Shown here piece after piece: positions 1 through 1,704 of a stretch of DNA of 1,704 nucleotides. The stretch comes from Naegleria gruberi (lineage: Eukaryota). The notes beneath the pieces were generated by a model that was not told the origin of the DNA, did not search any database, and worked only from the letters and a program-made list of their open reading frames with translations. Within the stretch, counting starts at the first letter, position 1. Each line of letters begins with the position of its first letter. The stretch is taken from NCBI GenBank assembly GCA_000004985.1, contig GG739343.1. One strand, 5' to 3'. A program made the translations under genes and the position numbers.

Positions 1-2
1 CC

Positions 3-26
3 CATTTTTTTTGATTTTTTTGTAAA
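3..26. repeat. Copy A of a direct-repeat motif caT8gaT7gtaaa; the - strand reads TTTACAAAAAAATCAAAAAAAATG
   Basis: Identical to 1117..1139 apart from one extra T in the second T-run. On the - strand it ends in ATG (5..3) followed by GG at the window edge. Confidence 0.85.
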
Positions 27-50
27 TTAATGGATTCTAATTGGAAGGGT

Positions 51-245
51 TCATTGTAAATTGCATCCTGTGAGTGGATAAAACCCCATTCGATAATCCC
101 AATAATCAATACCATTGTCATCAGGTAGAGCAACACAACAAGTAGGTTCAAAACCTTGAAATGCTTCCATTAAAGTTCTTTTCACAATATTTTCACTTTC
201 AGGTTTGTGAAAATGAAAAAATCGTCCAAAGTGAAATATATCCAC
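51..245 (-). CDS. Downstream (C-terminal side) segment, +1 frame relative to 247..777; listed in the ORF track as a 64-aa GTG-initiated ORF
   Basis: The frame opens at 251 (after TAA 254..252), only 5 nt before the TAA (249..247) that ends the 247..777 frame. It reads (VN)VDIFHFGRFFHFHKPESENIVKRTLMEAFQGFEPTCCVALPDDNGIDYWDYRMGFYPLTGCNLQ and ends at TGA 53..51. If TGA is sense it continues (C)TLPIRIH to TAA 29..27. The first codon in the ORF track is GTG, not ATG, so an independent start is unlikely. Confidence 0.35.
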   Translation of the reverse strand: MDIFHFGRFFHFHKPESENIVKRTLMEAFQGFEPTCCVALPDDNGIDYWDYRMGFYPLTGCNLQ

Positions 246-246
246 A

Positions 247-777
247 TTAACTTATCCTTATAATAAGGTTTTTCAGTTTTTTTATCCAATCACTTATTTC
301 GTAAAATGAAAAGGAGTAAACTTCCAAATCATTCAGAATCTTGTGAAAAATTTGACAATCTGTCATTTCCTCAGTTCCAGGCCATTTGAAAGGTCTTACA
401 TGGTTAACATATGAGTGAATAGTTCTTGCAGCAAAATAATAAGAGAATTTGGCCATTTGATGAGGAGTTGGATCCAACTCATTGTTAAACTTGATTCGAA
501 CATCAATTAACTTGCAAGTTTCAGAAAAATTCTTCTCACATTTTTCTCCTTTAATTCTTGTTTGGAATAATTGTGAAAGTTCATTCACAAATCTTGATTT
601 CCCAACTCCTTCCTCGCCTTGAACAATCAGAACCGTTCCAGTATCTAAAGTTTTTAATATTTTCCAGATCACTATTGCTAAACGAAGTAAATAAATAATT
701 TTCAATCCAATTAAATGGTAAGGTGAATTGACTTTTGGATTTTTAAAGTTCTGGGAACACTTGTTTGATGATATCAT
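247..777 (-). CDS. P-loop NTPase segment (Walker A GEEGVGKS; STAND/NACHT-like or KAP-like); the central frame of a gene that is split over several frames
   Basis: ORF track gives 176 aa, ATG at 777..775, TAA at 249..247. A hydrophobic strand followed by a glycine-rich loop, TGTVLIVQGEEGVGKSRFVNELSQ, is a textbook Walker A (GxxxxGKS) context of the kind found in NACHT/STAND and KAP NTPases. I could not recognise a Walker B (hhhhDE) motif downstream. The protein-like reading continues in other frames upstream and downstream, so this ORF is probably not the whole gene. Confidence 0.6.
   Translation of the reverse strand: MISSNKCSQNFKNPKVNSPYHLIGLKIIYLLRLAIVIWKILKTLDTGTVLIVQGEEGVGKSRFVNELSQLFQTRIKGEKCEKNFSETCKLIDVRIKFNNELDPTPHQMAKFSYYFAARTIHSYVNHVRPFKWPGTEEMTDCQIFHKILNDLEVYSFSFYEISDWIKKLKNLIIRIS
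595..618 (-). other. Walker A / P-loop motif GEEGVGKS (codons ggc gag gaa gga gtt ggg aaa tca)
   Basis: Direct translation of the - strand, residues 54-61 of the 247..777 ORF. Confidence 0.8.
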
Positions 778-988
778 AAGTGTCTAATCTTTCATAAGCT
801 TCAAGAACAATATGAACAATCCTATTGACAAACTTTCCATCGACATCATATTGTTCCAAACCATCAATTTGATTGCCAAATTCCTTTCTTAATACGGAAA
901 TCAGATAGTTCCTATCCCACTCTGAATAATTCCAATAACAAAGATTGTTGACTATAGTCTGTAACTTCTTCTTTACATATTGGCTTAT
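746..988 (-). CDS. Upstream (N-terminal side) segment of the same NTPase gene, in the frame one step behind 247..777; no ATG in this frame
   Basis: The - strand frame with codon starts congruent to 1 mod 3 is open from after TGA (991..989) to TAA (745..743), 81 codons. It reads ISQYVKKKLQTIVNNLCYWNYSEWDRNYLISVLRKEFGNQIDGLEQYDVDGKFVNRIVHIVLEAYERLDTYDIIKQVFPEL. The composition is hydrophilic and protein-like. It overlaps the start of the 247..777 frame by 12 codons. It is absent from the ORF track because it lacks an ATG/GTG and its longest TTG-initiated piece is short. If TGA is a sense codon the frame stays open up to TAA at 1087..1085. Confidence 0.35.
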
Positions 989-1116
989 TCACCAGAAGAA
1001 AACATATCTGTAATTTACAATAACAAGTTTGAATCCTCTTCAATTAAAGTTTAATATGATTTTTGATATATTTGAAAAAAAATTTTAAGGTTTGGAAAAT
1101 TTGAATATTCTTGAGA

Positions 1117-1139
1117 CATTTTTTTTGATTTTTTGTAAA
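1117..1139. repeat. Copy B of the direct-repeat motif caT8gaT6gtaaa; the - strand reads TTTACAAAAAATCAAAAAAAATG
   Basis: It overlaps the left arm of the inverted repeat. On the - strand it ends in ATG 1119..1117, the mirrored actin start. Confidence 0.85.
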
Positions 1140-1158
1140 ACTGTTCATTGTTCCTCAG

Positions 1159-1179
1159 AAATTACAAAATTAAAAAAAA
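1159..1179 (+). promoter_or_regulatory. Start context aaATTACAAAATTAAAAAAAAA immediately 5' of the actin ATG; TTACAAAA at 1162..1169
   Basis: This is the third occurrence of TTACAAAA + T + A-run + ATG in the window. The other two are on the - strand at 1139..1117 and 26..3. That makes it a candidate core promoter or initiator element. No Shine-Dalgarno-like purine tract of the GGAGG type is present. Confidence 0.4.
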
Positions 1180-1704
1180 ATGTCTCAAGAATATTCAGCG
1201 ATCGTGTTTGATAATGGCTCTGGCTCCATTAAAGCAGGTTTTTCAGGATGTGAGAATCCACAAGTGGTTTTTCCATCACTCATTGCTTCTCCTTTAAAAT
1301 CCAAAGAATCTGAAAATATCAAAGAAATATACCTTGTGGGAGATGAAGCTAAAATTGACAGTAGAAAGAATGTTAGAATGGTCAGATATCCAATAGAACA
1401 TGGAGTAGTGACGAATTGGGAGGGGATGGAACAGATTTGGCGTCATGTTTTTAGTCAATTACAGGTGGATTGTGAAAATCATCCTGTTTTATTGACTCAA
1501 CCTCCTTGTAATCCAAAACAAAATAGAGAAAAGATGACTGAAATAATGTTCGAAACATTTAGAATACCATCCATGTATGTTTCTATTCCTGCTGTATTGT
1601 CCTTGTTTGCAACTGGGAGGACAACTGGAATAGTTTTAGATTCTGGAGATGGTGTGACGAATATTGTTCCAATTTTTGAATCACATGCTTTAGAATATGC
1701 TGTT
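1180..1704 (+). CDS. Actin-family protein (divergent actin or actin-related protein); 5' end complete, 3' end truncated by the window edge
   Basis: Seen in sequence: ATG at 1180..1182 is preceded by in-frame TAA at 1171..1173, so it is the first start. 175 codons stay open to the last base of the window. The translation [23 protein letters not shown]...[18 protein letters not shown]...[27 protein letters not shown]...[30 protein letters not shown] carries the canonical actin-fold motifs: phosphate-1 DNGSG (1210..1224), YPIEHG, NREKMTxIMFETF and phosphate-2 DSGDGV (1639..1653). Established knowledge: these blocks are diagnostic of actin/Arp. The region matching the actin DNase-I binding loop is replaced by [14 protein letters not shown]. 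Confidence 0.85.

Follow-up and report, generated by a model that had tools for sequence, protein, structure and literature searches.

A predicted, unannotated metallophosphoesterase gene behind a locally repeated start context at the edge of a Naegleria gruberi contig

The window analyzed here is a complete 1704-bp contig of Naegleria gruberi whose left edge lies 2 nt past a minus-strand ATG (5..3), predicted to be the start codon of an unannotated gene for a calcineurin-like metallophosphoesterase. The best overall explanation, which we regard as probable, combines the start of this phosphoesterase gene, the A8 start context of the lineage, locally duplicated copies of the start region, and an adjoining dead NTPase gene. 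The features that enter this explanation are the following, from left to right.

1..5, minus strand: ATGGG, the initial 5 nt of a predicted metallophosphoesterase ORF that leaves the contig here and has its continuation in metagenome contig L001 at 880-1263
3..26, minus strand: cassette copy A, TTTACAAAAAAATCAAAAAAAATG; leader and start context with the final ATG at 5..3, identical at L001 859-882
27..29, minus strand: stop codon TAA in frame with ATG 5..3 and 8 codons upstream of it, also present at L001 856-858
49..57, minus strand: 9-mer ACAATGAAC, a possible promoter element farther upstream; the supposed stop TGA 53..51 falls inside it
51..1116, minus strand: P-loop NTPase pseudogene fragment in frames -3/-1/-3, with in-frame stops (for example TAA 746..744); its counterpart occupies L001 1-850
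1102..1138, no strand assigned: left arm of an inverted repeat; holds the leader and ATG as well as, in inverted form, the first 18 coding nt of the actin-like gene
1117..1139, minus strand: cassette copy B, TTTACAAAAAATCAAAAAAAATG; its ATG (1119..1117) opens a 22-codon ORF starting MSQEYS
1143..1151, no strand assigned: second copy of the 9-mer, GTTCATTGT, in the 23-nt unique center of the divergent spacer
1162..1182, plus strand: cassette copy C, TTACAAAATTAAAAAAAAATG; leader of the actin-like gene
1162..1197, no strand assigned: right arm of the inverted repeat, including cassette copy C
1180..1704, plus strand: actin-like coding sequence, partial (175 codons), NAEGRDRAFT_77005 (Pfam Actin, E = 8.6e-56)

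The predicted gene at the left edge

A reading of the DNA made from its letters alone (the sequence-only reading) had predicted that a further gene runs leftwards on the minus strand from the ATG at 5..3. Since the N. gruberi NEG-M contig stops 2 nt after this ATG, the reading frame is demonstrable in a close relative instead of in NEG-M. This relative is L001, an ENA metagenome contig of 1264 nt that served as a stand-in for the sequence left of the window. It matches window positions 1..885 on the opposite strand with 95.5% identity, is identical to the window across the cassette and the ATG, and extends 380 nt beyond the left edge. From the L001 ATG at 880, the equivalent of window 5..3, the frame stays open for at least 128 codons, up to where the contig stops, and the predicted leftward gene is thus borne out in the closest sequence available.

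The translation of L001 880-1263 has the N-terminus MGQAESSV and reads MGQAESSVAIEDSG...ASDVHLEF...LLGDIGDP...VTGNHEYY. It matches the Pfam Metallophos family (PF00149) at 23.9 bits, above the curated (gathering) cut-off of 21.5, and contains the first three motifs of that family in the correct order, DVH (DxH), GDIGD (GD), and GNHE. The L001 ORF covers the N-terminal 128 residues, and the C-terminal motifs lie beyond the contig. The same stretch stays open in 1 of 20000 shuffles, and GC3 is 0.26 in this ORF and 0.24 in the actin-like gene. Motif order and a score above the gathering threshold are features that the predicted gene shares with calcineurin-like metallophosphoesterases; unlike these proteins generally, it has no detected sequence homologue, with the N-terminal 128 residues in view. 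Searches with the fragment returned no homologue from a database of 5.8 billion proteins or from IMG/VR, and the best structure match in the PDB was insignificant. Nor is the phosphoesterase among the annotated N. gruberi proteins contained in the 5.8-billion-protein database.

A single reading frame holds TGA 53..51, TAA 29..27, and ATG 5..3, and because the TAA closes the frame upstream, ATG 5..3 is the first possible start. We propose that this first ATG would be the one used, a longer N-terminus being excluded by the in-frame TAA, and that positions 3..26 would represent the proximal promoter or leader together with the start codon of an unannotated minus-strand calcineurin-like metallophosphoesterase with the N-terminus MGQAESS. 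The N. gruberi sequence to the left of position 1 would then be expected to read ATGGGACAAGCAGAA..., in an open frame with metallophosphoesterase motifs. The N-terminus MGQAES fits MGxxxS, a pattern for N-myristoylation.

The adjoining NTPase fragment

The sequence-only reading had placed the further gene directly against the 3' end of an NTPase gene and had inferred a very compact genome with fused gene-end and gene-start signals. Comparison with homologues shows that the NTPase survives only as a decaying fragment of a pseudogene, truncated and interrupted by stops and frameshifts. A HMMER search of 1.84 billion representative proteins with the NTPase sequence identified only two pieces of L001 and one distant relative, KAL9646466.1 of Willaertia magna, a hypothetical protein of 830 aa in which Pfam recognizes no domain. 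In the 5.8-billion-protein database, the NTPase ORF has one match, a 100-aa product on L001, and an exact protein look-up gave no record for the 176-aa ORF or for the NAEGRDRAFT_77005 protein. A Pfam search of the NTPase yielded weak P-loop matches, all below threshold, including one of VapE-like/SF3-type (E ~0.003). The family is an uncharacterized heterolobosean P-loop family.

By tblastn, the window is collinear with residues ~146-464 of the 830 residues of KAL9646466.1, about one third of the family length, in three pieces. Residues 146-224 correspond to 862..641 (frame -3, with an in-frame TAA), residues 254-374 to 657..277 (frame -1, E = 4e-14, with the Walker A motif inside), and residues 384-464 to 247..5 (frame -3, with two stops and a Walker B-like block). 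The Walker A sequence GEEGVGKS of the window aligns with GDCPGVGKS of KAL9646466.1, and the Walker B-like sequence MWIYFTLDD aligns with IWIHFTIDE. No continuous full-length frame spans the homologous region. The window and L001 share the NTPase TAA stop and differ by indels of 8, 4, and 13 nt, none of them a multiple of three. The stops, the frameshifts, the partial coverage of the homologue, and these indels all argue against an intact NTPase gene.

An alternative in which the stops and frame changes are explained by a ciliate genetic code and tiny introns, with a 28-nt GT..AG candidate at ~650-680, was considered and rejected. The source is Naegleria, the indels relative to L001 are those given above, and the alignment to KAL9646466.1 crosses stops and changes frame within conserved blocks. 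One patch of the pseudogene differs from its surroundings: L001 345-366 and window 528-541 are distinguished by clustered substitutions and an 8-nt insertion, and the rest is ~98% identical. The patch resembles the product of a minor repair or replacement within the pseudogene.

As the NTPase is a pseudogene fragment, TGA 53..51 is not the end of a working gene, and the proposal of a fused gene-end and gene-start signal loses its support. The distance from this TGA to the motif, given previously as 22 nt, is 24 nt (27..50). The DNA between copies A and B is what remains, decayed and truncated, of a P-loop NTPase gene, and the short distance from stop to ATG is therefore no sign that two live genes have their signals fused.

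The repeated start context and its counterparts in the lineage

On the plus strand, positions 3..26 and 1117..1139 read CATTTTTTTTGATTTTTTTGTAAA and CATTTTTTTTGATTTTTTGTAAA, respectively. They have an exact 18-mer in common (repeat family D7) and match at 23 of 24 positions, the difference being one 1-nt indel (an extra T in a run), which upholds the near-identity reported by the sequence-only reading. On the minus strand, both copies take the form TTTACAAAAAA(A)TCAAAAAAAATG. Their similarity is confined to the stretch from TTTAC to ATG, with abrupt borders on both sides. The architecture is shared with the start of the actin-like gene, as had also been claimed: copy C has it on the plus strand, and TTACAAAA together with A8-ATG is found at all three sites. 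TTACAAAA occurs exactly three times in the window (both strands), each time 2-5 nt before A8-ATG, and AAAAAAAATG likewise occurs exactly three times, against a shuffle mean of 0.14, always together with TTACAAAA. A8 stands directly before ATG 5..3, ATG 1119..1117, and ATG 1180..1182. An ATG ends every copy, and two of the three ATGs head ORFs with a Pfam domain. Among 2000 dinucleotide-preserving shuffles, none contained a repeated 18-mer, and a single TTACAAAA-N(2-5)-A(7-9)TG appeared in one. The cassette repeat is real, and chance is excluded as its cause. A second shared element lies farther upstream: GTTCATTGT (ACAATGAAC on the minus strand) is present exactly twice in the window, upstream of copies A and B, where 0.04 occurrences are expected, and none of 200 shuffles reached two. 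An Rfam search of the window gave no match, and literature searches found nothing specific on Naegleria promoters or the cassette motif, nor a paper for study accession PRJEB11402.

The expectation that the motif would be enriched at other gene starts was examined in the sister genus, at a 22.6-kb locus of W. magna (L024) with 14 called genes and 13 complete starts. It held for the A-run before the ATG and failed for TTACAAAA. At least three A's directly precede the ATG in 9 of the 13 complete starts, and at least four do so in 8. Conversely, among the ~800 ATGs on both strands of this locus, AAAA-ATG coincides with an annotated start in 8 of 10 cases, AAAAA-ATG in 6 of 6, and A8-ATG in 2 of 2; the gene calls were possibly trained on start context, which may inflate the figure of 8 of 10. 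These counts indicate that an A-run before the ATG is an ordinary and highly informative start signal of the lineage. Naegleria lovaniensis is among the genomes with the strongest Kozak signal in a preprint survey of start contexts (10.64898/2026.06.25.734688). The A8 before the ATGs in the window accordingly matches the normal start context of Naegleria and its relatives, in which the leader is very short, rich in A, and unstructured, and position -3 is A.

The part of the cassette upstream of the A-run behaves differently at L024. No W. magna start among the 13 has TTACAA at -35..-6, and TTACAAAA, present 15 times at the locus, never coincides with a start. The absence of TTACAAAA from these 13 starts leaves a general promoter role for the TTACAAAA block unsupported. 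Likewise, the L024 data revealed no enrichment of the TTTACAAAA block upstream of unlinked genes and no significant enrichment of an ACAA-type initiator. At 5 of the 13 W. magna starts, the preceding 80 nt contain AATGAAY in one orientation or the other (background 0.10, P ~0.006, post hoc), which is a weak lead. Compared with the plain heterolobosean Kozak-type context, which also has an A-run directly 5' of the ATG and A at -3, the window is distinguished by a 24-nt block that is near-identical at three starts within 1.2 kb, a conservation far in excess of what a degenerate Kozak context needs.

That the gene at 5..3 is expressed, from an active promoter and a transcription start site close to its ATG, is our inference. 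A proximal promoter element or the transcription start itself most likely lies in the block TTTACAAAAAA(A)TC, common to the three starts. The transcript would begin inside the cassette or shortly ahead of it, ~10-20 nt from the ATG, giving a leader that consists mostly of A. TTTACAAAA and ACAATGAAC may be proximal promoter elements that came to be shared via local duplication. In the protists Trichomonas, Giardia, and Entamoeba, compact promoters are driven by initiator elements, and leaders are very short. The window resembles them in having the cassette motif no more than ~20 nt from the ATG, TCA followed by A's, and very short intergenic DNA; it differs from them in belonging to a different lineage and in that copy C has TTA in place of TCA.

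Origin of the copies and alternative readings

The likeness of the three copies probably results from local duplication or gene conversion. Copies B and C lie in the arms of an inverted repeat of 32 nt with 94% complementarity (1102-1133 and 1166-1197; I1), which a second alignment (I7) lengthens to ~37 nt. The repeat takes in the ATG and the first six codons of the actin-like gene, rendering the divergent spacer almost palindromic, and as single-stranded DNA the region is predicted to form a hairpin (-28.8 kcal/mol, z = -9.4). The minus-strand ORF from 1119..1117 starts MSQEYS, as the actin-like protein does, and reaches a stop after 22 codons. Copy B thus represents an inverted duplicate of the actin start and not an independent promoter of the NTPase. 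Being largely such a duplicate, it provides no independent third example of the cassette, and as it heads no usable ORF, the cassette can exist without a live gene. By hand count, the first six codons at L001 880-897 (MGQAES) and at 1180-1197 of the actin-like gene (MSQEYS) are identical at 11 of 18 nt; this likeness suggests that the cassette may formerly have reached into coding sequence.

These duplications raise the question of whether the cassette has any function. It is possible, though we consider it unlikely, that the 24-nt identity is a mere scar of local rearrangement, produced by fold-back duplication and gene conversion, with TTTACAAAA functionless and the A-run before the ATG alone being of consequence. 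The inverted repeat of B and C (32-37 nt) extends 18 nt into the actin coding sequence, a reach that a promoter element does not need, and copy B heads only its 22-codon ORF. The truncated pseudogene between A and B suggests breakpoints at both ends, and the failure to find TTACAAAA at W. magna gene starts is in line with a scar as well. On the other hand, the similarity of A and B stops abruptly at TTTAC and at the ATG, which fits a functional module better than a randomly duplicated segment. The second 9-mer common to the regions upstream of both A and B, and the retention of the ATG in all three copies, also speak for function.

A further proposal gives the cassette a larger role. The 24-nt cassette and ACAATGAAC would together form a dedicated, portable promoter-leader module of Naegleria, copied between neighboring genes and sometimes carrying their first codons with it. 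We consider such a module quite improbable; if it were real, it would mark a co-regulated or recently assembled gene cluster.

An origin of the contig from a compact viral or mobile element in or with Naegleria, with a dedicated short promoter and the actin as a "viractin", is very improbable. Three functionally unrelated genes packed tightly behind near-identical motifs, on a tiny and unplaced contig, could point to such an element, as could the very divergent actin and the below-threshold VapE-like/SF3-type P-loop match of the NTPase. In giant viruses, short AT-rich motifs such as the mimivirid AAAATTGA are also repeated before packed, unrelated genes. The resemblance ends there: the window has neither viral hallmark genes nor genes with viral closest relatives, and the cassette is essentially absent from viral contigs. 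Exact matches to the motif number two among 2.9 million IMG/VR contigs and 16 among 241 million metagenome records; all 18 are unrelated to the window, and none heads a related ORF. Searches for the B/C-type start in viral contigs and for the A-type start in prokaryote genomes gave no matches. In a giant-virus contig (L022), the actin gene is preceded by AAAAATTGA instead of the cassette motif. The NTPase has a single distant relative, a cellular gene of W. magna whose neighbors encode formin, a kinase, IFT57, and TELO2, and the phosphoesterase has no viral relative in IMG/VR.

The divergence of the actin does not bring it nearer to viruses, since the closest giant-virus actins (54% and 41% identity) are no closer to it than cellular actins are. 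In the 5.8-billion-protein database, the actin-like protein has a 100% match to [quoted passage not shown] and at most ~59% identity to other genuine actins. NAEGRDRAFT_77005, annotated only as a 174-aa partial protein, is an orphan and unusually divergent actin paralogue. A paper that cites nanopore data for N. gruberi (PMC12344493) reports that silent genes associated with repeats are enriched for cytoskeletal functions. Two higher-scoring actin matches (P0002 and P0003, with 57% and 63% identity) were set aside as ordinary actins on contigs with internal duplications. The metagenome actin contigs L002 (1-1731) and L003 (1-977) contain internally duplicated actin segments that inflate their scores against the query; both contigs are probably assembly chimeras.

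Tight packing is equally a property of ordinary W. magna DNA, in which intergenic spacers of 16-43 nt are found at L024 (16, 42, and 43 nt were seen). Two convergent genes are 16 nt apart (7593-7610), and two divergent genes are 42 nt apart (9958-10001). By this standard, a divergent spacer of 60 nt, as lies between copy B and the actin-like gene, is normal for the group. In a homopolymer-rich window of 32% G+C, A/T runs of low complexity might be suspected of resembling one another by chance, with ATG 5..3 starting no gene; this reading is already refuted by the shuffle test on the 18-mer and by the L001 ORF with its domain.

The biology of the window is ordinary, consisting of a real gene start in the usual Naegleria context, with a dead gene and a small inverted duplication adjoining it, and the general picture of genome organization is unchanged. 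A neighboring gene that looks tidy can be a pseudogene, and a proposed fusion of gene end and gene start therefore needs a check against homologues. The A(7-9)ATG signature marks gene starts in heterolobosean genomes with high specificity and is of practical use; it could aid the re-annotation of small or fragmentary contigs. For the Naegleria gene catalogue, the predicted gene would add one missing member, a lineage-restricted metallophosphoesterase.
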